Assembly: GCA_052033375.1 (NCBI GenBank)
Contig: JBPOJQ010000014.1
Span: 342 to 64,341, forward strand
Reading direction: 5' to 3'
Length of the DNA stretch: 64,000 bases
Source of the DNA: Candidatus Magasanikiibacteriota bacterium
GTDB taxonomy: Bacteria > Patescibacteriota > Patescibacteriia > Magasanikbacterales > UBA922
Part shown: piece by piece, positions 12,253 through 32,713 of the stretch
Numbering within the stretch: the first letter of the stretch is position 1
Layout of the letters: each line of letters begins with the position of its first letter
The notes under the pieces: model-generated
The model's input: the letters and a program-made list of their open reading frames with translations, nothing else
What the model was told of the DNA's origin: nothing
Databases searched by the model: none
Position numbers and translations under genes: made by a program

Positions 12253-13257
12253 ATGCCCACTCTCTCACAATACAAAACTGATTTTCTCGAACATCTCGAA
12301 ATTGAAAAAAATCGAAGTGACAAAACTACCAAAAACTACGATTTTTACCTCAAACGTTTTGTTGAATGGTTCGGGGAAAGCAAAAAACCTTCTGAAATCA
12401 CCTATGAGGATGTTCGTCAATTCAGACTCTGGCTACATAGACTTGTAGACGTACATGGCGAACCTCTCAAAAAAAACACACAGAACTACCACCTGATTGC
12501 ACTCCGAACATTTCTCAAATATCTTGCCAAGCGAGACGTGCCAACGCTCCCAGCAGAAAAAATTGAACTCATGAAGATGCCTGATCGAGAAGTATCTTTT
12601 CTTGACGGAAGTGATCTCAATCGTATCCTTGAAGCTCCACTCAAAAATATTAATACGAAAAAACTTGAGGCAGAAGGAAGTAAGATTTCCGCAGGACCCA
12701 CCCTCTTAATTGCCTATCGAGATAAATCTATTCTCGAATTACTATTTTCTACTGGACTTCGTGTGTCAGAATTGATAAAACTCAAAAAAGATGATGTGAA
12801 TCTGAAACGCGATGAGTTTACCGTTGTCGGTAAAGGACGTAAAGCTCGCGTCGTCTTTCTTTCTGAACAGGCAAAATATTTTCTCAAAAAATATTTAGAT
12901 CTTCGAAATGATATTCACCCTTATCTCTTTGTTTCTCATGACAAACGCACTAACAAACATGAAGTTGCAAAGAATTCCTCAAAAAACACTCCAGATGAAC
13001 CTCTGACTCCACGCTCAGTGCAGCGCCTGGTCCAAAAGCATGCCCGTGAGGCAGGAATAACCAAACCTGTGACTCCTCATACCATGAGGCATTCCTATGC
13101 CACCGATTTGCTCCAAAATGGGGCTGACATACGGAGTGTGCAATCAATGCTTGGACATGCGTCGATTACCACTACCCAAATCTATACCCACATTACTGAC
13201 AAAGAATTGCTTAATATACACAAAAAATTTCATGGAAAGAAACGAAAAGACGATTGA
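12253..13257 (+). CDS. tyrosine site-specific recombinase (XerC/XerD family)
   Basis: C-terminal catalytic motifs …HTMRHSYATDLLQNGADIRSVQSMLGHASITTTQIYTHI…; N-terminal SAM-like core-binding domain; ORF track starts at 12229, MPTLSQYK at 12253 avoids overlap with upstream gene; directly upstream of tRNA-Arg. Confidence 0.85.
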   Translation: MPTLSQYKTDFLEHLEIEKNRSDKTTKNYDFYLKRFVEWFGESKKPSEITYEDVRQFRLWLHRLVDVHGEPLKKNTQNYHLIALRTFLKYLAKRDVPTLPAEKIELMKMPDREVSFLDGSDLNRILEAPLKNINTKKLEAEGSKISAGPTLLIAYRDKSILELLFSTGLRVSELIKLKKDDVNLKRDEFTVVGKGRKARVVFLSEQAKYFLKKYLDLRNDIHPYLFVSHDKRTNKHEVAKNSSKNTPDEPLTPRSVQRLVQKHAREAGITKPVTPHTMRHSYATDLLQNGADIRSVQSMLGHASITTTQIYTHITDKELLNIHKKFHGKKRKDD

Positions 13258-14853: not shown

Positions 14854-15025
14854 GTGTACCGCTTCATGTATCATCTATCGTATCAGACGGACCAAACTCC
14901 TTGCATCGGCTCAATTTCTGTGGATTGATCGTAAAAAATGTTTTTTTACAATACAACGCCGACTCAGCGTTGTATTGTTTTCCAAAAATTAGCTATACTT
15001 GCTACTATCATATTCTTTTGCATTT

Positions 15026-16144
15026 ATGCGGACAAAAGTACTCATTGTCTCACTCTCAGCAGGATCGGGACATCTCCAGACAGCTCGGGCTCTCGAAAAA
15101 GCTGCACTACTCGAATTTCCTGAACTTGAGTGTAGACATATCGATATCGCTGACTATATCACTCCATTGCTCAAAAAAGCTACTGTCGAAGGATACGACT
15201 TTCTGGCTGCACATATGCCAAAGGTGTGGTCCGGAATATTTCGACTTACCGATAATCAAACATTTGCCAAAACTTACCAGGCCCTCACCGGATATCTAAA
15301 AATGCTCAATTCATTCGACTTTCTACGCGAAGTAGAAAAATTCAAACCTGACCATATTATTACGACGCATTTCCTGCCTTCAGAAATTCTCGTACACGCC
15401 ATGAAAAAACAAGGTATTTCTATCCCGATTACCCAAATTATTACAGACTATGGAGTACACCCCATGATGATAATCAACGGTGTCACCAACTATGTGGTCA
15501 GCACACCACACATGAAAGAAGAATTGATTCATACGTATCATATTCCTCCCGCACATATATATGACTTTGGTATTCCAATTGATCCCGCTTTTTACCATAT
15601 ACCGCCTCTAGATCCCACTCGATCTAAATATCACATTCCTCACGACAAGCCACTTATTCTGCTCTTATCCGGCGGAAGTGGACTAATTGAGCTTTCAGAC
15701 ATTATTGAAGAATTATTTGCACACATACATACACCAATTACCATTGTTTCCGTGGCAGGAAAAAACAAAAAGCTTTTAGCTCGTATTTCAAAACTTATTC
15801 CTCCGGCACATATTACCTACAGGCCCATTGGGTGGACTGATCATATTCCACAACTCATGAAACTTTCTTCAGTTGTTATTAGTAAGCCAGGAGGCCTCAC
15901 GACTACAGAGTGTATGGCAACTGGCGTACCCCTCATCGCAATTCACCCCATCCCAGGACAAGAAGAATTTAATATTGCATACGTGAAAAAAAACCATCTT
16001 GGTGATTTTGCCCAAACCGCCACTGATATTCCACCTCTTGTCGACAATTATTTTTCAAAAAAATCTGCATACAAAAAACAGACTGTGGTGCAGTCTGGTC
16101 GACAACTTCTCACATGTATTATCCAATCAAAAATCAACCATTAA
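15026..16144 (+). CDS. glycosyltransferase, GT28-like (MGDG synthase/UgtP/MurG-like)
   Basis: MRTKVLIVSLSAGSGHLQTARAL… N-terminal motif of the MGDG-synthase/UgtP family; C-terminal GT-B half (…SKPGGLTTTECMATGVPLI…); ORF track start 14999. Confidence 0.65.
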   Translation: MRTKVLIVSLSAGSGHLQTARALEKAALLEFPELECRHIDIADYITPLLKKATVEGYDFLAAHMPKVWSGIFRLTDNQTFAKTYQALTGYLKMLNSFDFLREVEKFKPDHIITTHFLPSEILVHAMKKQGISIPITQIITDYGVHPMMIINGVTNYVVSTPHMKEELIHTYHIPPAHIYDFGIPIDPAFYHIPPLDPTRSKYHIPHDKPLILLLSGGSGLIELSDIIEELFAHIHTPITIVSVAGKNKKLLARISKLIPPAHITYRPIGWTDHIPQLMKLSSVVISKPGGLTTTECMATGVPLIAIHPIPGQEEFNIAYVKKNHLGDFAQTATDIPPLVDNYFSKKSAYKKQTVVQSGRQLLTCIIQSKINH

Positions 16145-16617
16145 TCAGGATAGAGCCCGTACGTATCTTGATTTATCTGTATAGTCGGATCATACCCCGG
16201 TGACATCGGATTATTAATGCTTCCATATATTCCCATATAAATAAAATAGGTAATGCTGTATGCACCAAGTATTAGCGCCACTCCAACCACACAGTACATC
16301 AATATTTTTTTTCCTACTTCAATTTTTTCTTCATTACCACTCGAGGTCATGATCAAAAATCCAGCGTATAGCGCGAGCACTACTGCAATAATACCAATCA
16401 CACTCAATGATGTCTTAATGAGTCGAGACACGATTATACGTGGGTCAGAGTATTTCAATTCCGCCCCTTTTTGTCCTGCAAATGCATTCAACTGGGCTTC
16501 CATTTCGGATCCCTGAAACTGACCTGGTTTTTGTTCAGCATACACCACCGATGAGATGCCCACAAATATGTGCAAGGCCACAAATGTGAACAGTATTATT
16601 TTTTTTATTGTATACAT
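16141..16617 (-). CDS. VirB2/TrbC-like 'T4SS-pilin' family small membrane protein (paralog 1 of 11)
   Basis: Signal peptide plus conserved C-terminal core …SVIGIIAVVLALYAGFLIMTSSGNEEKIEVGKKILMYCVVGVALILGAYSITYF…: two hydrophobic helices separated by a GN(E/D)EK loop. Confidence 0.6.
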   Translation of the reverse strand: MYTIKKIILFTFVALHIFVGISSVVYAEQKPGQFQGSEMEAQLNAFAGQKGAELKYSDPRIIVSRLIKTSLSVIGIIAVVLALYAGFLIMTSSGNEEKIEVGKKILMYCVVGVALILGAYSITYFIYMGIYGSINNPMSPGYDPTIQINQDTYGLYPD

Positions 16618-16634
16618 AGAAACATGTGCTGTGT

Positions 16635-17078
16635 TTATCCACTGCCGATTGTCTCTGCCAATATCCGGCTTGTAATAAAATTGGTGATACTGTACGCGGA
16701 CACAATAATTATCAATCCTATCACCGCGTATTCAATAATTTTTTTTGCCTTGGACACATTTTCATCATTTCCTGCTGCTGTAAACACTAAAAATCCTGCA
16801 TACACTATTAAAACTACAAATACTATCCCTAATAAGGAAAGTACTAGTTGTATTCCTTTTGCAACGGTGATCCGTATATCTTGCGCTTCGGTACCATACC
16901 CTGCTGCTTTCGATCCTGCATTCAATTGTCCCATGATATCTGGTCCACCAGTAGTAGTCGCACTAGCCTCTAATGGCAATCCACAGACCCCGCACACGAG
17001 GACACCGAGCATACACATAAGGAGAAATTTCTGTGTTTTTTTCATACAAAAGAGTCTGATTGATTTTTCAATACTCAC
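16635..17078 (-). CDS. VirB2/TrbC-like 'T4SS-pilin' family small membrane protein (paralog 2)
   Basis: …LSLLGIVFVVLIVYAGFLVFTAAGNDENVSKAKKIIEYAVIGLIIIVSAYSITNF… shared core; Sec-type signal peptide. Confidence 0.6.
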   Translation of the reverse strand: MSIEKSIRLFCMKKTQKFLLMCMLGVLVCGVCGLPLEASATTTGGPDIMGQLNAGSKAAGYGTEAQDIRITVAKGIQLVLSLLGIVFVVLIVYAGFLVFTAAGNDENVSKAKKIIEYAVIGLIIIVSAYSITNFITSRILAETIGSG

Positions 17079-17079
17079 A

Positions 17080-17490
17080 TTAAGGACTTGTGCTTGAAGA
17101 AGTTATTGATCCCTCAAGTACACGCGGTACAACAAATCGAGTAATACTGTATGCCGCCATCAAAATTATCAATCCTATTACTGCCCTACCAATAATATTT
17201 TTTGCCTTAGCCACCTGCTCATCCTCTCCTCGAGCGGTCATCCAGAGATAGCCAGCATACACAATAAGCACCGTGAATAACACCCCTAATATTGAAAATA
17301 GTACAGTGATAATACGACCAATATTTTCTGCTAACGTAGTTTCTGTTGCTTGCACATAGCCTGCTTGCGCACCTGCTTTATGCACGTCTTCGATACCAAG
17401 ATTTTGAGCATGCGTGGTGGTCACTAATAACCCACACACGAGTGTCCCAAGGATAAAACTTATTTTTTTAAATATTTGATGATATGACAT
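17080..17490 (-). CDS. VirB2/TrbC-like 'T4SS-pilin' family small membrane protein (paralog 3)
   Basis: …FSILGVLFTVLIVYAGYLWMTARGEDEQVAKAKNIIGRAVIGLIILMAAYSITRF…. Confidence 0.6.
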   Translation of the reverse strand: MSYHQIFKKISFILGTLVCGLLVTTTHAQNLGIEDVHKAGAQAGYVQATETTLAENIGRIITVLFSILGVLFTVLIVYAGYLWMTARGEDEQVAKAKNIIGRAVIGLIILMAAYSITRFVVPRVLEGSITSSSTSP

Positions 17491-17557
17491 AGTATAAAGT
17501 TGAAATTTTGACTATCAGTGACCTTTTGGCATCCACTCACTGCTCATCCAGGATTGT

Positions 17558-17950
17558 TTAATTTCCACTAAATCGTGATGTGATAAATACTGTAATGGCG
17601 TATGATGACACCACAATAAATAATCCCATTATTGATGATTTGATAATTTCTTTTGCCTTGTTCACCTGCTCATCCTCTCCTCGAGCGGTCATCCAGAGGT
17701 AGCCAGCATACACTGTAAGGACCAAAAATATAATGCCGACCAGACTCAACACTGTCTTTATCACATTGCCCACCACCGCAGATAAATCCGTTGGTACATT
17801 TCCACCAATGCCTTTTTGCACATTTTGTAAATTATTCCCCGCATTTCCGAGGTTCCCAGTTCCGATTACCGTGGCTGGTAGCGCAACAATACCTAGTACC
17901 AAAAGTACTACCTGTACACAAATTTTTTTATATACATCATTTTTTTTCAT
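17558..17950 (-). CDS. VirB2/TrbC-like 'T4SS-pilin' family small membrane protein (paralog 4)
   Basis: …LSLVGIIFLVLTVYAGYLWMTARGEDEQVNKAKEIIKSSIMGLFIVVSSYAITVF…; 50-bp segment nearly identical to paralog 3. Confidence 0.6.
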   Translation of the reverse strand: MKKNDVYKKICVQVVLLVLGIVALPATVIGTGNLGNAGNNLQNVQKGIGGNVPTDLSAVVGNVIKTVLSLVGIIFLVLTVYAGYLWMTARGEDEQVNKAKEIIKSSIMGLFIVVSSYAITVFITSRFSGN

Positions 17951-17961
17951 ACAGAGTTCAT

Positions 17962-18354
17962 TTATTTACCGAAATTGACTGCATTTGTTACAAATGTCGC
18001 TATAGCATATCCGCCGACAGTTATGATAAGACCAATTACTGCCGCAGTGAGTGTCTGACGAGATTTTGCTATTTTTTCTTCCTCACCTCGAGCTAAGAAC
18101 CATGTGATGCCCGCGTATAGGGTAAGCACAAAAAATAAAAGTCCCAACATCCCAAAAATCCACTGGGCCACGTTCCCCACATAGGTAGCTACCTCATTTT
18201 TTGGTAGCCCAGTCGGGGCAATTGTCGAATCAAGAGCAGATCCAGCATCTTCGATAGTTTTTTTTGCATGCGCATACCCCACTTGTACAAAACTTGCACC
18301 TATCACTACCAATGTATACGCAATAATAATACGAGATTTTATTCCCATACACAT
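17962..18354 (-). CDS. VirB2/TrbC-like 'T4SS-pilin' family small membrane protein (paralog 5)
   Basis: …FGMLGLLFFVLTLYAGITWFLARGEEEKIAKSRQTLTAAVIGLIITVGGYAIATF…; likely start at internal Met (18348) to avoid overlap. Confidence 0.55.
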   Translation of the reverse strand: MCMGIKSRIIIAYTLVVIGASFVQVGYAHAKKTIEDAGSALDSTIAPTGLPKNEVATYVGNVAQWIFGMLGLLFFVLTLYAGITWFLARGEEEKIAKSRQTLTAAVIGLIITVGGYAIATFVTNAVNFGK

Positions 18355-18941
18355 AATGTAGCATTTGCATTACAAGACACCTCATCTGTCAACGTAGGAC
18401 AAATTGTCTTACCTTTTGATTCGCATGAAGTTCCTATATATGAACACAGATTCCCCCCACTTTCGCACACATCTTTGTTTTCCTGTGCAGTTAAAGCGCT
18501 GTCAACCGATGTAAGACAACTCGCTTCAATTGCTTTTTTAGATGTACACTTTCTTACTGTTTCAGTATTTGTATTATTACCTGTGTTTGCTCCCAATTTA
18601 AACACAAAATTGGTCAATGCATAGGCCCCAATAATGATAATAATTCCAATTGTTGCCGCGATAATAGTATTCAATGCTTTCTCGGTCTGCTCTGAGCTCC
18701 CTCGGGCCGTCATCCACAAAATTCCTCCGTATAGTACGAGTACAAAAAAAAGTACTGAGATCATCGAGAGAAGCGTACCGATTACATTTCCAGCAATCGT
18801 TGGTACACTATTGCCGTACGTGTCGAGTTTTGCGGCGCCAGCAGTCTCATCAAGACCAAAATTTCCTGCCAACACCGTCGTACCTAATGCAAAAATCAAT
18901 ACTACTACACCGATTCCCGCGATAATATACGCTCTTCTCAT
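18339..18941 (-). CDS. VirB2/TrbC-like core with C-terminal Cys-rich extension (paralog 6)
   Basis: MRRAYIIAGIGVVVLIF… then …LSMISVLFFVLVLYGGILWMTARGSSEQTEKALNTIIAATIGIIIIIGAYALTNF… followed by ~85-aa tail with 8 Cys; start chosen at 18941 to avoid overlap with upstream gene. Confidence 0.55.
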   Translation of the reverse strand: MRRAYIIAGIGVVVLIFALGTTVLAGNFGLDETAGAAKLDTYGNSVPTIAGNVIGTLLSMISVLFFVLVLYGGILWMTARGSSEQTEKALNTIIAATIGIIIIIGAYALTNFVFKLGANTGNNTNTETVRKCTSKKAIEASCLTSVDSALTAQENKDVCESGGNLCSYIGTSCESKGKTICPTLTDEVSCNANATLCVWE

Positions 18942-18951
18942 AAAAAATTTA

Positions 18952-19380
18952 TTAAGGATACATGGGGCCGCACGATCCGGTGGTTTCACACAAAGATCGA
19001 AGAACAAAACTCATGATTGAATATGAAGTCATGATAATTATCAGTCCCATTACTGCTGCAAAAAGTATTTTCTTTGCCGTACCTACTTTTTCATCATTTC
19101 CCCCCGCTGTCATCCAGGTAAATCCGGCATATAGAATAATCACTACCGAAACAATCCCCAATAAACTCAACGCAAAATTAATAATCCGAATGGTGATAAT
19201 ACGTGGATCTTCACCACTTAATCCTGAATACTCAGTACCTGCGCAATCAAGTCCTAATACATCTCCAGGATTGTCTGTACCATCACATCCTTGGGCTAAT
19301 ACGGGTCTTGGGTGTAGTGTCACAAGGGTAATCAAAAAAATACCTGATAAGAGACACGTAAGAATTTTTTTTGTATTCAT
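18952..19380 (-). CDS. VirB2/TrbC-like 'T4SS-pilin' family small membrane protein (paralog 7)
   Basis: Signal peptide; Cys pair in N-terminal part (QGCDGTDNPGDVLGLDCAG); …LSLLGIVSVVIILYAGFTWMTAGGNDEKVGTAKKILFAAVMGLIIIMTSYSIMSF…. Confidence 0.6.
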   Translation of the reverse strand: MNTKKILTCLLSGIFLITLVTLHPRPVLAQGCDGTDNPGDVLGLDCAGTEYSGLSGEDPRIITIRIINFALSLLGIVSVVIILYAGFTWMTAGGNDEKVGTAKKILFAAVMGLIIIMTSYSIMSFVLRSLCETTGSCGPMYP

Positions 19381-19474
19381 AGCATTCTAAGAGGATCAAA
19401 GCCTTCACCAACCTTTTGAAGAATCGGTGAGGGCTCTGACACCCGTACGGGTGTAAGAGTGAGAAGCACATTAC

Positions 19475-19888
19475 TTATGCTTCTTCTACCGCTGTTTGAA
19501 TTGAATTGATAAAGAAATTTGCAATCGCGTATGCAGATAAAATGATCGCAAGACCAATTACTGCAGCGATAATAATTTTCTTTGCCGCTTCTACACTTTC
19601 ATCGTTTCCACCAGCAGTCATCCATTTGAAACCACCCCAGAGGATCAATATTACTGCGATTAATCCTAAGAATGTTAACGCGAGGTTGATAATATTAACT
19701 ACCACTTCGCGTGCATCAGTCTCATCAGTACTGATGTTCAAACCCGTTGTTGGTTCGATACCAAATGGATCGTCATTTACATTTGTTGTGAAGGCAACTT
19801 TTGGTGATAACGTAAATACAGTTACTAAAGCTACAATAGCCAATAATACATTTCTATGCTTTAGTAATTTTGCTTGTATGTTTTTCAT
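19475..19888 (-). CDS. VirB2/TrbC-like 'T4SS-pilin' family small membrane protein (paralog 8)
   Basis: …LTFLGLIAVILILWGGFKWMTAGGNDESVEAAKKIIIAAVIGLAIILSAYAIANF…. Confidence 0.6.
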   Translation of the reverse strand: MKNIQAKLLKHRNVLLAIVALVTVFTLSPKVAFTTNVNDDPFGIEPTTGLNISTDETDAREVVVNIINLALTFLGLIAVILILWGGFKWMTAGGNDESVEAAKKIIIAAVIGLAIILSAYAIANFFINSIQTAVEEA

Positions 19889-20075
19889 ACTCCCTCACCC
19901 CCCTTCAATTTTTGACATGTTTTATACATAACAATGAATCACGTTTATGTACGAACTTACGAACAAATGCCGAAAGTACGAAACTTTATTTTACTATTCT
20001 TGGTTGCACCTCCAACTTTACTTAAAATAAATTTCGTACTTTCGTAATGGATTTCTTAAGTTCGTACGTATATTA

Positions 20076-20474
20076 TTAATTTGGACTCGCCTGTAACGTG
20101 GTTAAAATCAACGTAATTATAGCATAGCTACTAAAAACTACAATAATTCCAATTCCAGCCCAAAGCATCGCCTGTAATCCCTTCTGAATCTTTTCTGAAT
20201 TTCCTGCTGAGGTGAGCCAGAGAAAACCCCCGTACAGGAATACGACAAAGGTGATTGACCCCACGATTCCCATGATGACCTGAATTGTATTTCCTATAAT
20301 CACTTTTATATCCGATGTTTCGAGTGGGTTCACCAACGATACACATTCTTCTCCCGTACGACAAACACTTGCTGGTGTGCTCGAGGCCGAAGCTAATTGA
20401 AAATTACTAAAACTTATAAGAGTTCCAAATATAAGTATTATAATCACGACTAATTTTTTCCAACTTTTCTTCAT
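20076..20474 (-). CDS. VirB2/TrbC-like 'T4SS-pilin' family small membrane protein (paralog 9)
   Basis: …MGIVGSITFVVFLYGGFLWLTSAGNSEKIQKGLQAMLWAGIGIIVVFSSYAIITL…; CxxxxC in N-terminal region. Confidence 0.55.
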   Translation of the reverse strand: MKKSWKKLVVIIILIFGTLISFSNFQLASASSTPASVCRTGEECVSLVNPLETSDIKVIIGNTIQVIMGIVGSITFVVFLYGGFLWLTSAGNSEKIQKGLQAMLWAGIGIIVVFSSYAIITLILTTLQASPN

Positions 20475-20479
20475 ACTAA

Positions 20480-21652
20480 TTAAAATGGTGTCAGATTAGG
20501 GTTAATGCCAATCGCCTTTACAATAAAGCTCACTAATATGTAGGCTGAAAATGCGATTATCATACCCACGGTTGCGGCTACTAATATCTGCTTTCCTTGT
20601 CCTACTTTTTCTGAATTTCCAAATGACAGAACCATAGTGAGACCACCATAGACAAAAAATGCAAACCCAAGTCCAGCAATAATGCCAAAAAGCCAATTTG
20701 CCACGTTCACTCCAAGCTCTATCAAATCTTCCACACTACGACAGGTGCCTGTAAAGGCGCACGCAGGAAGTGGGCCTGTATAGTCATCAGGTCTACGATA
20801 ACGATCGGCTATATATTGATCGACCGCTTTTGACATATCGACATCAGTTGTTTTTTTTATACACGTATTATTTTCTCCAGTTGTACAATAGTTTGCAGTC
20901 GCACAGACATCTGGTGGTAATTGTGTACAGTCTACTGCAGGATCAGCTTTTGCCATGCATTTTGCCGGAGCGACCCACCAAAAACATTGTGAATTTGCTT
21001 CACAGATAGACTTTTCCTTACCATTATTTTGTGCGCACAAAGGGACCGGATTTACCTGCTGTTCATCTCCGTCAGCCTTCTTGAAAAAATATACATATGC
21101 ATCATCCACATCTGCATCAAGATCGTTGAAATAGAATCGTAATCGTGCATTTACTTCAGCAGCACCGCACTTGACTGAATTAATAAGAGGATATGTCGCC
21201 CTATCTGGTCTCTTATCATCAGATTGATAACTATTCCATTGACCCGTTCCACTTACTAGATAGGATCCAGGGACACCCGGTATACCACCACTCGCACTAC
21301 ATAGAGAATTATCATGAATTTGCATGCGCACATCTTCATCTCCCCAGCTTTGATCAATCACGAAAACACCGTCCTTATCAATACCTTTTATAAGCTGTGC
21401 CCAGTTGACTTCATTGATACCTACAGGAATCGTAACACAAAAAAATCTACCTCCTGTTGGCTGATTAGTCGTTTCATTGAAATCATCATCTTGACTTATT
21501 TTAAAAATTGCTAATTCTGTCTGCCCTGGTATGGCAAATGTTGGACACTTGAATCCCCCAAGTGATGCATCAACCGCATGTAATTCTGATGCAATAAAAA
21601 AAGTACTGAAAAAAGATAGTGTCAAAAAAATATGTTTGATACAACGATTCAT
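20480..21652 (-). CDS. large Cys-rich secreted domain fused to VirB2/TrbC-like core (paralog 10)
   Basis: 390 aa; signal peptide, ~300-aa ectodomain with >20 Cys, C-terminal …FGIIAGLGFAFFVYGGLTMVLSFGNSEKVGQGKQILVAATVGMIIAFSAYILVSF… core. Confidence 0.55.
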   Translation of the reverse strand: MNRCIKHIFLTLSFFSTFFIASELHAVDASLGGFKCPTFAIPGQTELAIFKISQDDDFNETTNQPTGGRFFCVTIPVGINEVNWAQLIKGIDKDGVFVIDQSWGDEDVRMQIHDNSLCSASGGIPGVPGSYLVSGTGQWNSYQSDDKRPDRATYPLINSVKCGAAEVNARLRFYFNDLDADVDDAYVYFFKKADGDEQQVNPVPLCAQNNGKEKSICEANSQCFWWVAPAKCMAKADPAVDCTQLPPDVCATANYCTTGENNTCIKKTTDVDMSKAVDQYIADRYRRPDDYTGPLPACAFTGTCRSVEDLIELGVNVANWLFGIIAGLGFAFFVYGGLTMVLSFGNSEKVGQGKQILVAATVGMIIAFSAYILVSFIVKAIGINPNLTPF

Positions 21653-21660
21653 AAACTTAT

Positions 21661-23046
21661 TTAGTACGTTTGTTGAATTTTTGCAGCCGCATTAATGATT
21701 ACGGTTTTATCTTTTTTGAGTGTCTCTTGTTCAGTATTTCCGGCTCTAAGAAATTCTGTAATCATATCTTTCATTGCTGAAACAGCTATTTCGCTCTCTC
21801 GTCCTCTATACCAATTATCTGCAAACAATGCTTGGGTTGCAAATGGCCCCATGGTCTCGTCTTGTTGTTGAACTACGATTTGTTCGCGGTAAGGACTCGG
21901 TCTAAAAGTCGCTGTCGTATAGGTCTGCACTTTTTCTTTTGAAGAAATAAATCGTACAAAATCCCATGCTTCATTTTGATGTTTTGATTTTTTTACCACT
22001 GATTCAAGCCAATAATTGGCTACATTTGCAGGCGATCCAGAATTCAATTGAGGTACTGTCGTAATTTTGATATTGAGCTGTGGTGCACGTGCTTTGATAC
22101 GCGGATAATCATATGCAAATCCGAAAAAAAACGCGCTTTTCCCTCGTACAAATTCGTCGAATGCATTTTGTTGCTTTTCGTTCCAGCTGTACCGATCTGC
22201 AGTAGCTCTCGCAAATCCGGTATAAAAATCTAGGGCTCGAATCATCGGATGCGAACGATCTTGAGACCGATCTACACCTGCTGCAAACGTAACTGATTCC
22301 TGAGTTACGGGAGTTGCCCCACTCTGTACCATAAATAGCGAGACAATATCAAAAAAATTATCAATATTATTGGAGGTTCCGAGTGCTACCCCTGATTGTG
22401 TAATATCAAGCGTTGCGTTGAATTTAGTCGTTTTCTGTACCGCTGCGACAAATTCTTCCCATGTAGTCGGTGCTTCGGCTATCCCTGCCCGATCGAGAAG
22501 TGTCTGATTGTAGAAGAGCGCCAGTGAATCGAAGGCAATAGGTAATCCATAAATTTTTCCCTCAATTACAGCATCTTTGTGGACTGATTGGACATATTCA
22601 CTACGCAGGTCGCGTTCTTTGGGTAGCGGAATAGTATCGACCACCACTGCCATCTCTTTGGTGTACTTATTTTTTTGTATTAAACGTGGTACTTGGACAC
22701 TGTCAGGGGCTGTAGCAAGTCGATTCTGATTTTTTCGAATCCAGCGTACATGCATAGATACTATATCTGGCCCCACATCGTCTGCTAATGCGTTGGTAAA
22801 TAATTGATCGAATTCTTCATATCGTACTTGTCGTATATTTATCGTCACTTGTGGTCGTAGTGCCTTGTATTCTGCAGCATATTTTTTCAATTCTTCCACA
22901 TCATTATACACCGTCCAATAATTCAATGTGACCGCCTTTACACTTGATTGCTCCTGCGCAGTCAATCCTTTGCACCCAAAACCAGAAAAAACCAACAACA
23001 CAGTTAGAATGGTGGAAAAAATTATCGATCGCTGCCTGGTTTTCAT
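21661..23046 (-). CDS. ABC transporter substrate-binding lipoprotein (family 1, sugar-type)
   Basis: 461 aa; lipoprotein signal with lipobox-like …FSGFGC; periplasmic-binding-protein type 2 fold residues throughout. Confidence 0.7.
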   Translation of the reverse strand: MKTRQRSIIFSTILTVLLVFSGFGCKGLTAQEQSSVKAVTLNYWTVYNDVEELKKYAAEYKALRPQVTINIRQVRYEEFDQLFTNALADDVGPDIVSMHVRWIRKNQNRLATAPDSVQVPRLIQKNKYTKEMAVVVDTIPLPKERDLRSEYVQSVHKDAVIEGKIYGLPIAFDSLALFYNQTLLDRAGIAEAPTTWEEFVAAVQKTTKFNATLDITQSGVALGTSNNIDNFFDIVSLFMVQSGATPVTQESVTFAAGVDRSQDRSHPMIRALDFYTGFARATADRYSWNEKQQNAFDEFVRGKSAFFFGFAYDYPRIKARAPQLNIKITTVPQLNSGSPANVANYWLESVVKKSKHQNEAWDFVRFISSKEKVQTYTTATFRPSPYREQIVVQQQDETMGPFATQALFADNWYRGRESEIAVSAMKDMITEFLRAGNTEQETLKKDKTVIINAAAKIQQTY

Positions 23047-23121
23047 AGTTTTCTAGTTATTGAGTTGTCTAGTTTTTTGCTACATGATACTACATCACCC
23101 AAAAACCATAATTAATTAACC

Positions 23122-23835
23122 TTATCTGAATATTTCAAAAATAAAATTCACCAATGCATAACTTGCAAAAATCAACACTATCCCCAACCCTGCCCAAAGA
23201 ATTGTATCTCTAGCTTTCTGTGTACTCTCAGAATTCCCTCGTGCTGTCATCCATGTGATTCCACCATAGAGCATCATGACCAGTGCCACTGTCCCGACCA
23301 CCCCCATAACCCCTTTTATCAACACACCAATCAGTTCTGGGAGTGTGTCTGCTTCTAGTTTATTGAGTTGATTTGCGTATTTAGAGAGTTGGGTTGACGA
23401 TGTGTTCCCGCGTGCAACCTCATCTACACATTTCTGAAAATTCGTGTATTCAGTACACGCACCGCAATTCCCTGGTGTCATAATACTTCCCCCGGCAGCA
23501 CTATTGCCATATTTGATACACTGATTTCCACACCGACATCCGCCATTTGGATAAGTAATGCCCCCAGCTTGACACGCCTGCAGTGTTTCAAATGGTTCTT
23601 GCAAGGGCGGACTACAAAAAGTTTCCAGCCATGAAGAATCTATTTTTCCTACTCCTTGCACACCATTTATATTTGGAACATCGTCCCCAATTTTATAACA
23701 CACACTGTTTATCTTACACGCCTGAGTCGCAGTAAAAACATTATGTGAAAAAAACATGGTGCCACTTAATATAACAAGCAAAACGAATATTTTTTTACTT
23801 TCTCGAAAAAATAACGACATATATGCGTAGTTCAT
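23122..23835 (-). CDS. Cys-rich secreted domain fused to VirB2/TrbC-like core (paralog 11)
   Basis: 237 aa; ~150-aa ectodomain with 12 Cys then …VMGVVGTVALVMMLYGGITWMTARGNSESTQKARDTILWAGLGIVLIFASYALVNF…. Confidence 0.55.
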   Translation of the reverse strand: MNYAYMSLFFRESKKIFVLLVILSGTMFFSHNVFTATQACKINSVCYKIGDDVPNINGVQGVGKIDSSWLETFCSPPLQEPFETLQACQAGGITYPNGGCRCGNQCIKYGNSAAGGSIMTPGNCGACTEYTNFQKCVDEVARGNTSSTQLSKYANQLNKLEADTLPELIGVLIKGVMGVVGTVALVMMLYGGITWMTARGNSESTQKARDTILWAGLGIVLIFASYALVNFIFEIFR

Positions 23836-23837: not shown

Positions 23838-24677
23838 CTACAGAAGTCCTTCTTTTTCGGCAAAATGAATTGCTGTTTTTAGTAATGCTAATTTATTCCC
23901 TGTATCAAAATATTCTCCTTCATACTCGTATGCAAAAAATTTCTTTTTCTTTGCTAGGGTATTTGCTGCGTCAGAGAGCCAAATCTCTCCATCTCTGCCC
24001 TCCTTCTGATTCTCCAAAATTGCCCAAATATCATTGGTGAAAATGTAGCGCATCCCTCCGACAATGAGACCCAATGGTGACACCGCATCAATCGGTGGTT
24101 TCTCACGAAATTCTGTTACTCGATAAATTCCCCGGCCAACAGATTTTCCGTATACATTACCGTATTTTTTTGACATTGACTCTTTGTCATCAATTTTCTG
24201 TACACCAATCACCGAAGATTTTTTCTTATAGAAAATATCCAATAGCTGTTGAATTACAGGAATTTGCGCATCAATGATACTGTCTCCGTCGGAAAACGCA
24301 AATGGCTCATCCCCCACAAATTCTTTTGCACACAGTAGTGCATGTCCATTCCCGCGTGGTTCCGCTTGTCGTGTATAAAAAAATCTTACTTTTTTGCTCA
24401 AATCTATCAACGATTGAATTCTATCTAATTTTCCCTGACTTTCTAGATATGCTTCAAAATCACGGTCACGGTCAAAGTGATCTTCAATAGCACGTTTTTG
24501 TGAACTAGTTACAAAAATTATTTCTCGTATTCCGCTCGCTGCCATTTCCTCGACGATGTATTGCAATACCGGCTTATCAAGTACTGGCAACATTTCTTTT
24601 GGCATAGCTTTTGTCGCAGGCAGGAATCTCGTTCCGAGTCCTGCAACCGTGATTACACCTTTACGGACTTTGTGCAT
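23838..24677 (-). CDS. galU: UTP--glucose-1-phosphate uridylyltransferase
   Basis: KGVITVAGLGTRFLPATKAMPKEMLPVLDKPVLQYIVEE… canonical GalU N-terminus; full-length nucleotidyltransferase fold. Confidence 0.85.
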   Translation of the reverse strand: MHKVRKGVITVAGLGTRFLPATKAMPKEMLPVLDKPVLQYIVEEMAASGIREIIFVTSSQKRAIEDHFDRDRDFEAYLESQGKLDRIQSLIDLSKKVRFFYTRQAEPRGNGHALLCAKEFVGDEPFAFSDGDSIIDAQIPVIQQLLDIFYKKKSSVIGVQKIDDKESMSKKYGNVYGKSVGRGIYRVTEFREKPPIDAVSPLGLIVGGMRYIFTNDIWAILENQKEGRDGEIWLSDAANTLAKKKKFFAYEYEGEYFDTGNKLALLKTAIHFAEKEGLL

Positions 24678-24791: not shown

Positions 24792-26192
24792 TTATTTCAC
24801 TTCTTCCCAACTAATCAACTCATACGTCGAACCCACAGGAAATCCCGGTGGCGGATAATATTGCAGATTACCATCGTATACATGATTCGTATAATAGTAT
24901 CCCGAGACGACCTGCCCACTCCCATTGATATACTTCCATCCACCGCCTGCATATGAAATCTGTGAACCAAAAAAGGTGAGAGAATTTTTAAGTGCACCCG
25001 CATGTTGACTTGGGTTGTAATACGGAGTGTAAATTTTTGCATACTGCGTCAATGCTGCAGCATTGATTTCAAGTGTACTCGGAGCCTCGTATGGAATGAT
25101 AATATCCCCTTGGGCTATAATCCCGATTACATCGTCACTTGATTTTTGTTTCTGTAGCAAATTATTCGAGATAAATACTTCTTTGTAATTACTTGGTACA
25201 GGGAAATTTCCCACACCGATCGTTACCCTCCCATCGACAGTTCCCTCTACCCAGACATTATCTTCGACAAACATGACTCCATTTGCCGGAAGTGTGTAGG
25301 TACCAATCAATGTTTTTGTTCCAATATCATAACAATATGATGTCCCATTCCAATACCACCCAGACCATCTCCATCTCCAATTTCCTTCACCGTAATAGCA
25401 GTCGCGGGTATTCACCCGATATACCGTATACTGTGTATCATTAAACACAATGTGATATCCCTCTCCCCCTGAAGAAGCAAGATATTTTCCACCACTCTGT
25501 GCAGCAGTGCGTATGTCTGAGAGATCCGCTGATACTGACCCAAAATCAGCTGCAGGAACTGGAAATTCCCAATAATATTGAGGTCCTCCCGCACCCCAAA
25601 TACCCGCTTTGGTGGTACCTTCATATGTGTACGTCGTCTTTGCACTTCGAATCCATGAATCCGTTGTGCCATCAAATCTAATACCGCCATTAGACATTAT
25701 TTCGCCATGTACCTGAGTCGTGGCACTAAAAGACATATCCACATTCTCTATAAATGCACTGTCCGTAAAAGAAGGAAATCCTAAACGAACTTTGATGGCT
25801 CGATTGGCATTCGGAGACGATGCGACAGTGCCGGTAGATGCCACTGCAATTACAGAAGAATTGGGCAAGGGCGTTGAGATACTTATTGCAAAACTCCCTA
25901 CCGTGCTATTAAACTTATCTTTTATATTATGCACATATGGCCCCGGAGCACCTGTACCATCAGTGAAATCAGTTGGATTATGCGCCAAATGCCACCGATA
26001 ATAATTTATACCAGCTTCTGAGATATGAAATGTCACATCGCGACGGTACACCTCCATGGAAATACGGTGTTCGAATAAGGAGTAACTCAAAATTCCCAAG
26101 ACCATTGTCACGAATGCTATTGATCCAAAAACCATCACAATGAGTAATGTATTTCCCTGATGCCATTGAATTTTTTTTCTACTTTTATACAT
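24792..26192 (-). CDS. PilX-like type IV pilus minor pilin
   Basis: 466 aa; N-terminus …QGNTLLIVMVFGSIAFVTMVLGILSYSLFEHR… resembles PilX_N (hydrophobic helix after Gly, no Glu5); large beta-rich C-terminal region; first gene downstream of pseudopilins. Confidence 0.45.
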   Translation of the reverse strand: MYKSRKKIQWHQGNTLLIVMVFGSIAFVTMVLGILSYSLFEHRISMEVYRRDVTFHISEAGINYYRWHLAHNPTDFTDGTGAPGPYVHNIKDKFNSTVGSFAISISTPLPNSSVIAVASTGTVASSPNANRAIKVRLGFPSFTDSAFIENVDMSFSATTQVHGEIMSNGGIRFDGTTDSWIRSAKTTYTYEGTTKAGIWGAGGPQYYWEFPVPAADFGSVSADLSDIRTAAQSGGKYLASSGGEGYHIVFNDTQYTVYRVNTRDCYYGEGNWRWRWSGWYWNGTSYCYDIGTKTLIGTYTLPANGVMFVEDNVWVEGTVDGRVTIGVGNFPVPSNYKEVFISNNLLQKQKSSDDVIGIIAQGDIIIPYEAPSTLEINAAALTQYAKIYTPYYNPSQHAGALKNSLTFFGSQISYAGGGWKYINGSGQVVSGYYYTNHVYDGNLQYYPPPGFPVGSTYELISWEEVK

Positions 26193-26224
26193 ACATGTGA
26201 ACCACTACTCGTATATGTGAATAA

Positions 26225-26848
26225 TCAATTGGTCTTCAAATTTCTAATATGTGTCAACGATTCGACTCTCAACGGTACCGGACTTTTTGTCTGATCCTTT
26301 TCTATTTCAATAATAATTTTTACCATTCGTATATTTGTAATACTCACTGGATCAGACATCGCCGCCTCGCTCCCAGTATAACTCTCGGTAAAATATTGAA
26401 AAGTCGGTGTTCCTCGCGATGCATTTCTCACATAGCTTGCCAATGTGGTCACTTGCTCTTGTCCTGAATAATTCAACGGATTTCCGCTGGGTTTTAATAT
26501 TCCACGCTTTAGATCAGTACCAGACAACCAATAATGTATACGTTCACGCATACTATCCCCGTCAATATTTGCATATACTATCAGCGATGACGTTGTAGCT
26601 TCTGCTATCGGATACGAACCAATGCTTGAAGCTTCTGCAGTTCTAATAGTATTCACAATTTCAGACACCACTCGTCGAGCATCCTTTTGTCCATATAATT
26701 GATCATCGAGTACACGCTGATTGCGGAAAGTCAGTATAATAAATGATGTAGCTCCGAGACCTACAATCAATGAAATTCCCATGACAACCGCTACCTCAAG
26801 CAGGGTCATTCCTCGGTAATCACTATTATTTTTATACACACGTTTCAT
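26225..26848 (-). CDS. type IV pilin-like protein (prepilin-type N-terminal cleavage/methylation domain), PilW-like
   Basis: …YRGMTLLEVAVVMGISLIVGLG… class III signal (G|MTLLE with Glu+5). Confidence 0.6.
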   Translation of the reverse strand: MKRVYKNNSDYRGMTLLEVAVVMGISLIVGLGATSFIILTFRNQRVLDDQLYGQKDARRVVSEIVNTIRTAEASSIGSYPIAEATTSSLIVYANIDGDSMRERIHYWLSGTDLKRGILKPSGNPLNYSGQEQVTTLASYVRNASRGTPTFQYFTESYTGSEAAMSDPVSITNIRMVKIIIEIEKDQTKSPVPLRVESLTHIRNLKTN

Positions 26849-28620
26849 AGAGAAGTTAGATCTGCGATTATAAAATGATCCTCGGTTACCTCGAATATTT
26901 CTTCGTAATCCTGATACCCTTCTGCTTCAATATGAATCGTATATTCCCCTTGGGATAAATTTCCCACATATACTTGCCCTGGTGGTGTACATGCATTCGT
27001 ATAGACAAATGTAAGGTCAGAGAGTAGCGGTGAAACCGATGGGTCTGCGGTATCCAAATATACTCGATAACGCATGTACCTCTCATCATCATGAACATCT
27101 GATATATGCACACTGCTTTCAGTAAAATAGGTATTTTCTGTACCATCAGGTCCTACAAAAACCCAAGACTGCGGTGTGCTCGAAGGGCTGGTAGCCATTT
27201 GCAGCCGTAGCGTCGTCGAAGGTGACTGGGCCATAGGATTCCACGACCAGATAATATATCGTGCATTTTCTCCAGTATCTATTGTTGACGATTCAAGATA
27301 TCCGCTTGATACATAGTCATTTCCATTCTTTGCAAGAAGCACATTTCCTGGACTAGTGAGTGTGTCAACACCACTCGCTGAACTGTATCCACCCTCTTCC
27401 TCAGTAAAATTTTCAAATCCTGCACCCATTGACCACTCTGTCTGTCCAATACTTCCAACTCCAGTATTTTTTGTAGAAGAAAAACCATTTGGTCCAGTAA
27501 TCGTCACGGTTGCATTGGCAATCGGAGCACTCTGATGTTCTGCCATAACCACTAGTGAGCGTGATGTATTCGGACCTAAAATCAATGTGCCTACTTCGTC
27601 TGCTCCAGGGAGTAATGTCATTGGAACATCAGGAATGGTCCCAATCAAATCATAGCCGGATACCACCAAACCATAACTATCCCACGGCAGAGAAATAAGC
27701 GACTGCATTCCACCAGCATCAGTCGTATAACTCTCATGTATCAAATAGACACTTGGATTCGCACCGATAAGTCGTGTCCCCTTGATCTGAAATGGTACAT
27801 TTCCCACTGCATTACACTGAGCATTTTTGGTTTCAACACTTAATGTAGAAATTTCATCAATAGTTAACGTGAGATTACTGACTTCCTGTTGCAGGACAGT
27901 CACATTCGAGGTAGTCGGATTTGGATTGGTCGAACTTGGTGCATAGGTCTTATCTGTGGTGTATCCTGTCTTTGTCGCCTGTATAAAATATTTTGCAGTA
28001 CCAGTAGCTAAATCATATATACGCAAAAATCCATCATCATCTGTCGTATCCATGAAATTATACGAGGGGTCAGTGCTCGTCGAAATAACAGTGACCGACG
28101 CATTTGAAACAGGATTACCATATGCATCGATCACTTGAACAAATAATGCACCGTGGTTCAGATTTCCTTCTAGATATTTTGGTGCAATATAGGTATACAT
28201 TGACAATGGTTCAGTCTGATCACACGAGACGCAGCGCGCCTCAATTTGAACAAATTTGTAATCAGCTGGCGCAGTATCCCCAGTCATTCCACCGATAGTT
28301 CCATCGTATGGATCATCAATATTTCGTATAGTGCGAGTAATTTCAAATATCATGCCATTTCGCGAAGTTGTGGTAGTATACTCAAATATACCAGAAGGAC
28401 TTCCATTGATAATTCCCACATCCTCGAAAGCTACGTTGTGCATAATTTCCATTTGTTCATTCAAAATAGCCGTCCCAAGGATGCGGACTCGAGAATGATA
28501 CACGAGTGAAAAACTCAGCTGGATACTACCATAAATTCCAACAATAAATAGCCCGAAAATGCCGAGTGCAACGACTGACTCAATTAAGGTAAATCCTTTC
28601 TGTATACGCGGTATTTTCAT
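26845..28620 (-). CDS. large type IV pilin-like protein (PilV-like N-terminus with ~550-aa ectodomain), candidate pilus tip/adhesin
   Basis: MKIPRIQKGFTLIESVVALGIFGLFIVGIY… canonical G|FTLIE prepilin signal; long Thr/Ser-rich beta-rich C-terminal domain. Confidence 0.6.
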   Translation of the reverse strand: MKIPRIQKGFTLIESVVALGIFGLFIVGIYGSIQLSFSLVYHSRVRILGTAILNEQMEIMHNVAFEDVGIINGSPSGIFEYTTTTSRNGMIFEITRTIRNIDDPYDGTIGGMTGDTAPADYKFVQIEARCVSCDQTEPLSMYTYIAPKYLEGNLNHGALFVQVIDAYGNPVSNASVTVISTSTDPSYNFMDTTDDDGFLRIYDLATGTAKYFIQATKTGYTTDKTYAPSSTNPNPTTSNVTVLQQEVSNLTLTIDEISTLSVETKNAQCNAVGNVPFQIKGTRLIGANPSVYLIHESYTTDAGGMQSLISLPWDSYGLVVSGYDLIGTIPDVPMTLLPGADEVGTLILGPNTSRSLVVMAEHQSAPIANATVTITGPNGFSSTKNTGVGSIGQTEWSMGAGFENFTEEEGGYSSASGVDTLTSPGNVLLAKNGNDYVSSGYLESSTIDTGENARYIIWSWNPMAQSPSTTLRLQMATSPSSTPQSWVFVGPDGTENTYFTESSVHISDVHDDERYMRYRVYLDTADPSVSPLLSDLTFVYTNACTPPGQVYVGNLSQGEYTIHIEAEGYQDYEEIFEVTEDHFIIADLTSL

Positions 28621-28630
28621 TCAAAAAAAA

Positions 28631-29137
28631 TTATTCTTCAATCCCCAATTCAACCATAATTTTTTCGACTATTGCACGAGCTTCTGCACTAGTCCGAGCA
28701 GGTACAGTCTTTTTGTCTCGACCTTCTTCCACAAGCGCTCTGACCAGATCTTCTTTCATGCCGAGTAATTCTTTTTTATGTTCAATGATTTTTTGTTTGA
28801 GTTGTGCAACCACCCTCTGGTCTTCCCCTATCGAAGGCGCCCCCTCAACGGTGGTCAATTGTAATTGTTGCCTCAGTATCTTCAGTGCGGATAGTACGTG
28901 CTGAATATGCAACACCACGTTTTGCACTTGTGTTGTAGCATTTTGCACTTCTTTTACAAGATATTCTGCTCGCTCACGAATTGCTGCAGTCCGCATTTCT
29001 TCGTCTAACTCAATTCCATTCGTTTCTTTTGTTTCTCTATTTTTTTCTTTCTCAAAAACATATTTTTTTTCTTGATTTTCCATATACTGCATCTTCAATG
29101 CTAGATTTTTCATAAGTATATCACAGTACAGATTCAA
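28631..29137 (-). CDS. hypothetical coiled-coil protein (first gene of the minor-pilin operon)
   Basis: 168-aa charged helical ORF; no motif. Confidence 0.4.
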   Translation of the reverse strand: MNLYCDILMKNLALKMQYMENQEKKYVFEKEKNRETKETNGIELDEEMRTAAIRERAEYLVKEVQNATTQVQNVVLHIQHVLSALKILRQQLQLTTVEGAPSIGEDQRVVAQLKQKIIEHKKELLGMKEDLVRALVEEGRDKKTVPARTSAEARAIVEKIMVELGIEE

Positions 29138-29271
29138 AATAAATTATATTCCTCGAGTACATGGTCAAAAAAACAGGTAACCCATACATTTCATTGTCAC
29201 ATTTTAGTGTGATGGACATTGGTGTTTCCAAAAATCATGGTATTGTTTCAAAACGATTTATTAGATTAATA

Positions 29272-29306
29272 AAAACTCTTCTCCAATTTGGAGAAGAGTT
29301 TTGTAT
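29272..29306 (-). terminator. rho-independent terminator after rpsR
   Basis: AACTCTTCTCCAA-TTTGGAGAAGAGTT hairpin with flanking A/T tracts (U-run on minus strand). Confidence 0.6.
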
Positions 29307-29330
29307 AGTAATTTATATGTTGACTCGTGC

Positions 29331-29564
29331 TTATTTGGGAACAAATGCGAGTAGTCCAGCAATTCGTGCCTGCTTGATTGCTCGAGCAATCTGACGCTGG
29401 TGTTTTGCACAAAGTCCACTGCGACGACGAGGCTGGATCTTCATATATGAAGAGGTAAATCTTCGAAGTGCCTCGTTATCTTTGTAGTCAATAAATTTTT
29501 TTTTGTCGACACAGAAAAAGCATTGTTTTTGTTTTTTCTGATTTTGATTTTTCACTGGATTCAT
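29331..29564 (-). CDS. rpsR: 30S ribosomal protein S18
   Basis: …CFFCVDKKKFIDYKDNEALRRFTSSYMKIQPRRRSGLCAKHQRQIARAIKQARIAGLL… canonical S18. Confidence 0.9.
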   Translation of the reverse strand: MNPVKNQNQKKQKQCFFCVDKKKFIDYKDNEALRRFTSSYMKIQPRRRSGLCAKHQRQIARAIKQARIAGLLAFVPK

Positions 29565-32709: not shown

Positions 32710-32713
32710 TGGT

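Follow-up and report, generated by a model that had tools for sequence, protein, structure and literature searches.

How does a bacterium come to carry pilin genes with large cysteine-rich domains attached, and what might such proteins be for? The question is raised by a tandem array of pilin-like genes on the minus strand (16141-23835) of a 64,000-nucleotide stretch of a Candidatus Magasanikiibacteriota genome (contig JBPOJQ010000014.1), analysed here as a whole and hereafter called the window. The bacterium is ultrasmall, probably depends on a host and belongs to the candidate phyla radiation (CPR). A preliminary description, made from the letters of the window alone, had pointed out three array members in which a shared two-helix core is fused to a large cysteine (Cys)-rich ectodomain. 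The three fusions are indeed there. The open reading frames (ORFs) at 23122-23835 (237 aa), 20480-21652 (390 aa) and 18339-18941 (200 aa) are intact, lie on the minus strand and each match the pilin family PF18895 above its cut-off. Their named homologues come from Candidatus Magasanikbacteria (Patescibacteria, class ABY1). With modest confidence, we read the three proteins as minor pilins or anchors of modular build, equipped with exchangeable binding heads and joining a filament of short paralogues via their helical hairpin.

Tandem VirB2-like arrays are already known in Patescibacteria. In 383 assemblies, arrays of 2-11 genes have been reported, some of them with a non-pilin gene in between (PMC12102498). 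They are essential in the one genetically tractable Patescibacterium, as found for the array of Southlakia epibionticum (PMC10633639), and their role has been called completely unknown. A 2025 review describes the pilins as "structurally conserved, but sequence-divergent" and the pilus as an "intriguing possibility" (PMC12857230). We found no description of ectodomain-bearing pilin members in the literature searched, the coverage of which was partial, and to that extent the Cys-rich ectodomain fusions appear to be new.

The array comprises 11 ORFs and one unrelated gene, with gaps of -16 to 187 nt. In Pfam, 10 of the 11 members matched PF18895 (T4SS_pilin, VirB2/TrbC-like) above the gathering cut-off of 26.6 bits, and the remaining one, at 18952-19380, reached 25.6 bits; sub-threshold TrbC/VirB2 (PF04956) matches were found in five of the 11. 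A core of 75 residues could be aligned without gaps in all members, with a pairwise identity of 24-55% (mean 37%), values to be set beside the average of 25% and maximum of 54% published for array paralogues (PMC12102498). With 11 genes, one interruption and this core identity, the array falls under the published definition. Separate start codons are present in all members, and the hydropathy scan of all 11 showed a signal-peptide-like segment at the N-terminus and then two hydrophobic helices with a short polar loop between them. None matched N_methyl (PF07963) in Pfam, a family matched by the neighboring genes at 26225-26848 and 26845-28620. The core had been called pilin-like in the preliminary description. 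That it is shared was borne out, and its family can now be made precise, as these profile matches class the members as pilins of the VirB2/TrbC type, that is, of type IV secretion, and not as type IV pilus pilins. The hallmarks of type IV pilins, a class III signal peptide that bears an N-methylation motif and a single long helix, are both absent from the array members.

Another profile pointed the same way. The 237-aa and 200-aa proteins scored 39.8 and 29.1 bits against NCBIfam NF045849 (cut-off 40), the Mbov_0395 pilin-like conjugal transfer protein of a Mycoplasma integrative conjugative element, and their cores aligned across the entire 80-position model (E-values 3e-10 and 6e-7). The 390-aa protein did not match this NCBIfam model, which spans the core only and not the ectodomains. 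By score, the two proteins are classed as relatives of the family and not as members. The near-match fits the reported kinship of the Patescibacterial type IV secretion system (T4SS) with monoderm conjugation systems, namely, the MPF-FATA class (PMC12102498). A profile search of the sequences in the PDB returned no relative among solved structures.

The array members share with the VirB2/TrbC/TraA pilins (PF04956) of F, pED208, and T pili a signal peptide, two hydrophobic helices, a polar loop and termini located outside. Classical conjugative pilins are proteins of 7-13 kDa with short termini only, and VirB2 and TrbC are cyclised. In contrast, the extensions of the three window proteins measure 83-280 residues and would rule out a head-to-tail cyclisation. 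A further difference is the monoderm host. To our knowledge, no natural case of conjugative-type (VirB2/TraA-fold) pilins with large grafted domains has been known so far.

The 237-aa protein occupies position 1 of the array (PF18895 38.7 bits over residues 163-232; TrbC E-value 2e-5). It begins with a signal-peptide-like segment (about residues 1-36), continues with a Cys-rich ectodomain holding 10 Cys (residues 37-161, 23353-23727) and ends with the two-helix core (residues 162-237, 23125-23352); hydrophobic segments lie at residues 15-34, 167-195, and 211-236. All 10 Cys are at least 90% conserved in orthologues. The AlphaFold2 (AF2) model of this protein was poor, with a predicted local distance difference test (pLDDT) score of 56.

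The 390-aa protein, at position 2 (PF18895 35.8 bits over residues 316-377), also has its extension on the N-terminal side. Its signal peptide (residues 1-26, 21575-21652) is followed by a beta-rich head with 4 Cys (residues 27-200, 21053-21574), a Cys-rich stalk with 10 Cys (residues 201-306, 20735-21052), and the two-helix core (residues 307-390, 20483-20734). Of its 15 Cys, 14 belong to the mature protein, and 12 of these 14 are at least 90% conserved among 14 sequences with a mean column identity of 53%. The AF2 model built on this 14-sequence alignment had a mean pLDDT of 74.7, with strands within residues 45-192 and helices at 307-342 and 347-381. In this model, the head (about residues 30-200) scores 80-92 except for a disordered loop at 120-136, the Cys-rich stalk (about 200-305) consists of short hairpins and helices, and residues 307-381 form the helical hairpin. 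The ectodomain is thus modeled as a beta-rich head of ~170 residues on a Cys-rich stalk, and not as a mini-knot.

The 200-aa protein, at position 6 (PF18895 28.7 bits over residues 48-113), shows the reverse order, with a signal peptide, the core (residues 43-117, 18591-18815) and then a Cys-rich C-terminal tail (residues 118-200, 18342-18590) whose 8 Cys all fall within residues 132-197. Its ATG at 18941 agrees with the starts of its orthologues. The extension is therefore N-terminal in two of the proteins and C-terminal in the third, as first described. The Cys counts given at that time were right for the 200-aa protein (8) and too high for the other two, since more than 20 had been attributed to the 390-aa protein and 12 to the 237-aa protein. 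Three Cys-bearing members was also an undercount. The 142-aa pilin of position 5 (18952-19380) has a Cys pair at both ends (C32/C46 and C131/C137), a pattern that recurs in its orthologues, and the 132-aa pilin of position 3 (20076-20474; PF18895 37.8 bits) has one pair, CRTGEEC, just before the core.

Cys residues account for 5.0%, 8.0%, and 9.6% of the three ectodomains vs 0.72% of 40 other window proteins (binomial P 2e-8 to 2e-7), an enrichment of 7-13 times. The dominant spacings are Cx5C and Cx6C. Regarding the spacings put forward earlier, the exact CxxxxC is absent from the three proteins, and CxC is present once (CRC, residues 100-102), in the 237-aa protein, which also has the only CxxC. 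Among the homologues retrieved, the Cys count was even in 59 of 60 C-terminal tails and in 69 of 74 N-terminal extensions, and across 80 species it was even in 185 of the 186 C-terminal tails having at least two Cys. The hydropathy scan detected no hydrophobic segment inside the ectodomains. Even parity, a signal peptide and the lack of such segments point strongly to exported, fully disulfide-bonded domains.

The placement of the extensions agreed with this. They are confined to the two termini, and none lies in the loop. The pilin of F-type pili exposes its N- and C-terminal domains on the outside of the filament, and before assembly its loop is turned toward the cytoplasm (PMC7555446). Placement at the termini only is exactly what this topology allows. 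By analogy, both termini of the array members would point outward and the loop would face the cytoplasm or the pilus lumen, in which case the extensions would be exported and disulfide-stabilized. With the Cys enrichment, the even counts, the signal peptide followed by two helices and the termini-only placement, the proposal of extracellular disulfide-rich modules has gained ground, and we consider the extensions as very probably extracytoplasmic and disulfide-bonded. An MdbA-like thiol-disulfide oxidoreductase, in many cases encoded beside VKOR, is reported to be enriched in CPR genomes (PMC6744442). Among the window ORFs that were scanned, we recognised no gene of the DsbA, MdbA, or VKOR type, the only VKOR match being a weak, sub-threshold one on the pilin at 18952-19380. 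We noticed a DoxX/MauE-family membrane protein gene (46566-47135) adjoining a Pyr_redox_2 flavoprotein gene (45207-46499), a pair that is a possible lead for extracytoplasmic thiol oxidation.

As to what the modules are, Pfam returned nothing above threshold for the isolated window ectodomains, and no knottin family, and neither NCBIfam nor profiles of PDB sequences returned anything. Matches to GF_recep_IV (E-value 0.005) and PSI (E-value 0.16) were below the Pfam threshold and were rejected. In some orthologues, Pfam gave weak, mostly sub-threshold matches to Dickkopf_N, EB, and DUF7107. A knottin is a compact unit of about 30-50 residues whose six Cys are knotted in a 1-4, 2-5, 3-6 pattern. 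The suggestion that the modules are knottin-like found no support in Pfam or NCBIfam families, in PDB or viral folds, or in the model of the 390-aa protein.

Comparison across genomes then separated the core from what it carries. Five related loci (L001, L003, L004, L005, and L007) have the same eleven positions, with a solute-binding-protein gene after the first. Every core best matched the window core of the same position, revealing 1:1 positional orthology in the five genomes, with core identities of 63-99%. Such values are similar to the 82-94% found for the best-conserved neighbor genes (SSB, S18, and S6, among others) when the window is compared with L001. Full-length orthologues were found for all three proteins; neither disorder of the ectodomains, nor lack of a conserved Cys framework, nor frameshifts were observed. 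Extensions sit at fixed positions, N-terminal at 1, 2, and 3 and C-terminal at 6. Their non-synonymous divergence (dN) proceeds 8-15 times faster than that of the core, only dN being contrasted because synonymous divergence (dS) was saturated, exceeding 1.2 for almost every gene. At position 2, identity across the five genomes is 24-46% in the head, 34-73% in the stalk, and 75-93% in the core, and dN is 0.63-0.74 in the head vs 0.04-0.05 in the core.

At position 6, the cores are 88-96% identical and the tails ~30-36%, with tail lengths of 65-189 aa and 6-18 Cys; between genomes, the tails are essentially replaced by unrelated Cys-rich sequences. The L001 tail matched the DUF4215/Myxococcus cysteine-rich repeat (PF13948) at 25.1 bits, below the cut-off of 27, and precomputed PF13948 matches are listed for two homologues (P0052 and P0065). 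The window's own tail had no Pfam match, PF13948 included. A profile of the position-2 stalk weakly matched two orthologous position-6 tails in an 80-sequence database (E-values 6e-5 and 2e-4) and did not match the window's own tail. Because of the Cys bias, we did not retain homology between stalk and tail, for which the match is suggestive only.

Position 3 has no large extension in the window and L001. In four other loci, its orthologue has an N-terminal one, of 119 aa with 8 Cys in L004, 131 aa with 10 Cys in L005, 136 aa with 10 Cys in L007 and 335 aa with 14 Cys in L003, on cores that are 78-91% identical. The L003 orthologue (11386-12630, 414 aa) has a non-repetitive N-terminal domain of ~300 residues with YLHGN...AHSAG motifs that recall a serine hydrolase. 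An alpha/beta-hydrolase reading of these motifs (HG...AHSAG) was rejected, as Pfam, NCBIfam, and PDB sequences gave no support and only spurious antibody matches were obtained.

The preliminary description had also read the placement of the domains as cassette-like shuffling onto a common unit. In evolutionary terms, this holds. The position-1 gene of L007 encodes a protein (P0045) in which the head of the 390-aa protein stands, without the Cys stalk, on a core of the m11 type (61% identical). Since this is a different paralogue core, the head is judged from these alignments to have moved between paralogous scaffolds. Likewise, positions 1 and 3 of L004 have a Cys module in common (40% identity over 60 residues, E-value 1e-12), and the tails of position 6 and the clusters described below point in the same direction. 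The part of the claim that did not stand is shuffling of cassettes within a genome. No DNA repeats linking the ectodomain-coding regions were found within the window, and the shuffling is therefore taken as evolutionary and not as an active cassette system.

How general is the pattern? We surveyed 80 species-level genomes found with the core motif, using as query a four-member core alignment, as the alignment of 11 cores was too divergent to seed the scan; this query biases the survey toward Magasanikbacteria and close relatives. Among the 741 core-bearing ORFs, N-terminal regions of at least 100 aa were present in 124 of 718 (5.6% Cys) and C-terminal tails of at least 40 aa in 217 of 739 (7.8% Cys). 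At least one such modular member was found in 74 of the 80 loci, and the modular pilin pattern is general in the clade. The 341 extensions fell into 213 BLAST clusters, of which 175 are singletons. Different core types are represented in several clusters, and both termini in one. At most 7 of 89 cluster representatives had a Pfam match (Big_5 once; SH3_3, Dickkopf_N, and DUF7107 twice each). The few domains that could be recognized by their sequence are classed as binding-type, that is, Big_5 (Ig-like), SH3_3, and Dickkopf-like Cys modules. In the course of the survey, up to 14 core-bearing ORFs within 20 kb were seen in L037 and L042, above the published maximum of 11 per array, and one C-terminal tail (L065, 11519-12634) has 48 Cys in 372 residues. 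Many metagenome-assembled records with a clearly Patescibacterial locus (L009-L014 and others) are titled "uncultured Gammaproteobacteria bacterium," which looks like a mislabel.

We then asked whether the ectodomain of the 390-aa protein also exists on other anchors. Searched alone against 1.84 billion representative proteins, it gave 33 matches. Eight of these cover the greater part of its length, and the majority of the rest the stalk only. Of the 34 sequences scanned (these matches and the query), 33 carried PF18895. No case of this ectodomain on another anchor was found, and on this count it seems to occur almost only fused to the PF18895 core.

Collectively, these data suggest how the modular members might work. 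A filament or conduit would be built mainly from the short paralogues, and its assembly would fall to type IV secretion machinery whose genes lie elsewhere in the genome. The hairpin would let the modular subunits join this surface filament or conduit in low numbers or at its tip. The variable head on its conserved stalk and core would be an exchangeable binding module for a host-cell surface or a ligand, in a role parallel to that of VirB5 tip adhesins or of the modular minor pilins of type IV pili (PMC8179133). The latter, such as PilB of Streptococcus sanguinis, belong to an unrelated pilin superfamily and use unrelated machinery (PMC8179133). If true, the "modular pilin" idea extends from type IV pili to an unrelated filament family. 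For host recognition by CPR epibionts, it would turn modular pilins into concrete candidates for host-range determinants; the near-invariant core is a handle for locating such subunits, and the head sequences could be set against host associations from metagenomes.

As major subunit, the bare pilin of position 4 (19475-19888, 137 aa; PF18895 41.6 bits, TrbC E-value 3e-5) is the strongest candidate. It has no Cys, its core is 99% identical to that of L001, and it was rarely modular in the survey (two N-terminal and two C-terminal extensions among 52). Its dS of 0.70-0.96 is the lowest of the genes compared, the others being at 1.2 or more, and a conserved, strong, G-rich Shine-Dalgarno region (GAAGGGGGGTGAGGGAG) lies upstream of it. 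The lack of Cys, the near-absence of modular forms, the low dS, and the strong Shine-Dalgarno region suggest that position 4 may be a highly expressed major subunit. The high conservation of each paralogous hairpin is a sign that the hairpins make specific protein-protein packing contacts, that is, that they serve in assembly beyond mere anchoring.

The array also differs from those described so far. It resembles the published Patescibacterial arrays in its tandem PF18895 genes, its low paralogue identity and its chromosomal place fairly near dnaA (PMC10633639, PMC12102498). Members of those arrays have been treated as small, structurally uniform pilins, and the texts searched do not speak of the Cys-rich ectodomains, fixed modular positions and head swapping observed here; moreover, the present array is not next to virB4, and each of its paralogues is a conserved orthologue and not a fast-varying copy. 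The VirB2 paralogues of Bartonella (Trw) and Anaplasma are also multiple tandem VirB2-type genes, for which a wider interaction with the host surface has been proposed (PMC12102498). There, variation lies in the small pilins themselves, while in the present array it lies in domains appended at fixed positions to conserved cores.

Several observations weigh against modular subunits in a T4SS-assembled filament. No VirB4, VirB6, or VirD4 gene was found in the 64-kb window, where the only ORFs of at least 500 aa encode PilB, a prepilin-like protein, PolA, and a penicillin-binding protein (PBP), and no VirB4-like Walker-A ORF was found within 10 kb of the array in the 80 related loci. The link to a T4SS is consequently indirect. 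A VirB2-type pilus has not been observed in any Patescibacterium (PMC12857230). A head of 280 residues on every subunit could not pack in a VirB2-type filament, and the modular members must then be minor or tip subunits. A Foldseek search of the modeled head of the 390-aa protein against the PDB and BFVD gave only E-values above 0.3 and no structural relative; as a result, a binding function of the head is pure inference, as is the adhesin role put forward in the preliminary description. Finally, the saturation of dS means that positive selection cannot be shown. On the other side, VirB4 is listed as present in two array-bearing Magasanikbacteria genomes (Table S1, PMC12102498), which are those of L032 and L036 in our survey.

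A bolder version of the proposal is that of a heteropolymeric VirB2-type filament of fixed composition with three to four display positions, in which disulfide-rich heads, exchanged between paralogues and lineages, replace the missing adhesins of the VirB5/PrgB type and determine to which host cells the epibiont attaches and on which it feeds. It may be right, and we regard it as rather doubtful. The array might also build a protein-lipid surface structure independent of any T4SS, because no virB4 is adjacent in the 80 species and because the neighbors are always the solute-binding lipoprotein gene and, in the six loci inspected, the GalU-like and glycolipid-synthase genes.

The main rival explanation is that the two-helix hairpin is a membrane anchor only, and that the proteins are surface receptors or adhesins in the cytoplasmic membrane with no filament at all. 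It draws on the lack of a T4SS ATPase gene near the array in the window or the 80 related loci, on conserved neighbors that are a solute-binding lipoprotein and glycolipid-related enzymes and not secretion genes, and on the fact that the Patescibacterial pilus is so far, in reviews, a possibility (PMC12857230). Simple anchors, however, are seldom 90-99% identical while the attached domain drops to 30-50%, and the 1:1 orthology of eleven paralogues suggests specific packing contacts. Moreover, the core belongs to the VirB2/TrbC pilin family and VirB4 is present in related genomes, so that we judge this rival unlikely.

Another view is that the extensions are mixed cargo (enzymes, nutrient capture modules, or toxins) presented or released at the host interface, the core being a scaffold for display or export. 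The extreme diversity of the 341 extensions is in its favor, and so are the large non-repetitive domain of L003 position 3 with its HG...AHSAG motif and the solute-binding-protein gene that is always embedded in the array of the related loci inspected. Against it, Pfam detected no enzymatic family in the 89 representative extensions, no relative of the L003 domain was found in Pfam, NCBIfam, or the PDB, the recognizable domains (Ig-like and SH3) are binding-type, and a conserved stalk topped by a fast-diverging head is a typical feature of recognition proteins. We consider the cargo explanation improbable.

A further conceivable source of antigenic or phase variation is recombination within the genome that shuffles the ectodomains, comparable to silent pilin cassettes or to the amplified VirB2 paralogues of Bartonella and Anaplasma. 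The array does consist of tandem paralogues, and paralogue variation may aid host adaptation (PMC12102498). In addition, a core-coding stretch of 88 nt is 86% identical between position 9 (17192-17279) and position 8 (17643-17730), far above the rest of the array, which may reflect gene conversion or a recent duplication. Such a system is very improbable given that ectodomain-coding DNA has no repeats, that no member lacks a start codon and signal-peptide-like segment of its own, that orthologues are positionally stable with fixed modular positions in five genomes, and that cores differ by 45-76% between paralogues. As for Cys that bind metal (zinc, iron-sulfur, or metallothionein-like), to which the high Cys density and the single CxxC and CxC of the 237-aa protein could be credited, or ORFs that are decaying pseudogenes, both are very improbable in view of the predicted extracytoplasmic location, Cys counts that are even almost without exception, ectodomains devoid of paired CxxC...CxxC or Cys/His motifs, intact ORFs, and conserved full-length orthologues.

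The remaining members, positions 7 to 11 (17962-18354, 17558-17950, 17080-17490, 16635-17045, and 16141-16617, all on the minus strand), are short pilins without a Cys-rich extension, all above the PF18895 cut-off. The first 16 nt of the position-7 gene coincide with the last 16 nt of the position-6 gene (18339-18354), and several other junctions are of 1-17 nt. These short or overlapping junctions suggest an operon with translational coupling. A terminator-like hairpin followed by a T-run (16079-16097, minus strand), recognized by consensus match only, lies just downstream of the last array gene; a promoter/terminator scan of the array gave site counts not above the shuffled expectation.

The unrelated gene lies between positions 1 and 2 (21661-23046, minus strand) and is not a pilin gene. 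It encodes a solute-binding lipoprotein of 461 aa (SBP_bac_1 and SBP_bac_8, E-value 1e-22), found in the same place in L001, L003, L004, L005, L006, and L007. No gene for an ABC permease or ATPase adjoins it. Immediately upstream of the array is a gene for a GalU-like nucleotidyl transferase (UDP-sugar pyrophosphorylase; 23838-24677, minus strand; NTP_transferase E-value 2e-26). At the other end, convergent with the array, is one for a monogalactosyldiacylglycerol (MGDG)-synthase-like glycosyltransferase (14999-16144, plus strand; MGDG_synth E-value 1e-22). All six related loci, among them the distant L006, keep both flanks. Since conjugative pili are co-polymers of protein and lipid, a glycolipid link between these genes and a pilus is conceivable, as pure speculation.

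Directly upstream of the array, the region 24792-36051 holds a type IV pilus gene set with PilB, PilC, and PilM, two N-methyl prepilin-like proteins (one with CarboxypepD_reg) and a 466-aa protein without a Pfam family. L006 keeps the GalU-like/pilin/solute-binding-protein/pilins/MGDG-synthase layout, lacks the genes of the type IV pilus, and has a bare second pilin. The window is chromosomal, with dnaA/dnaN at 57580-60342, polA, a class A PBP gene, trigger factor and ribosomal protein genes, and a uniform GC content. The idea of a recently acquired island was rejected given this uniform GC content and a synteny that is kept across species, including a XerC/D-like integrase. Finally, the 187-nt spacer between positions 3 and 4 contains an imperfect palindrome of ~125 nt (19946-20070), with an RNA folding energy of -50.4 kcal/mol (z = -5.6) and no second copy in the window. 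It is absent from the orthologous 77-nt spacer of L001, the L004 spacer holds a different insert, and the palindrome may be an inserted hairpin element or an attenuator.

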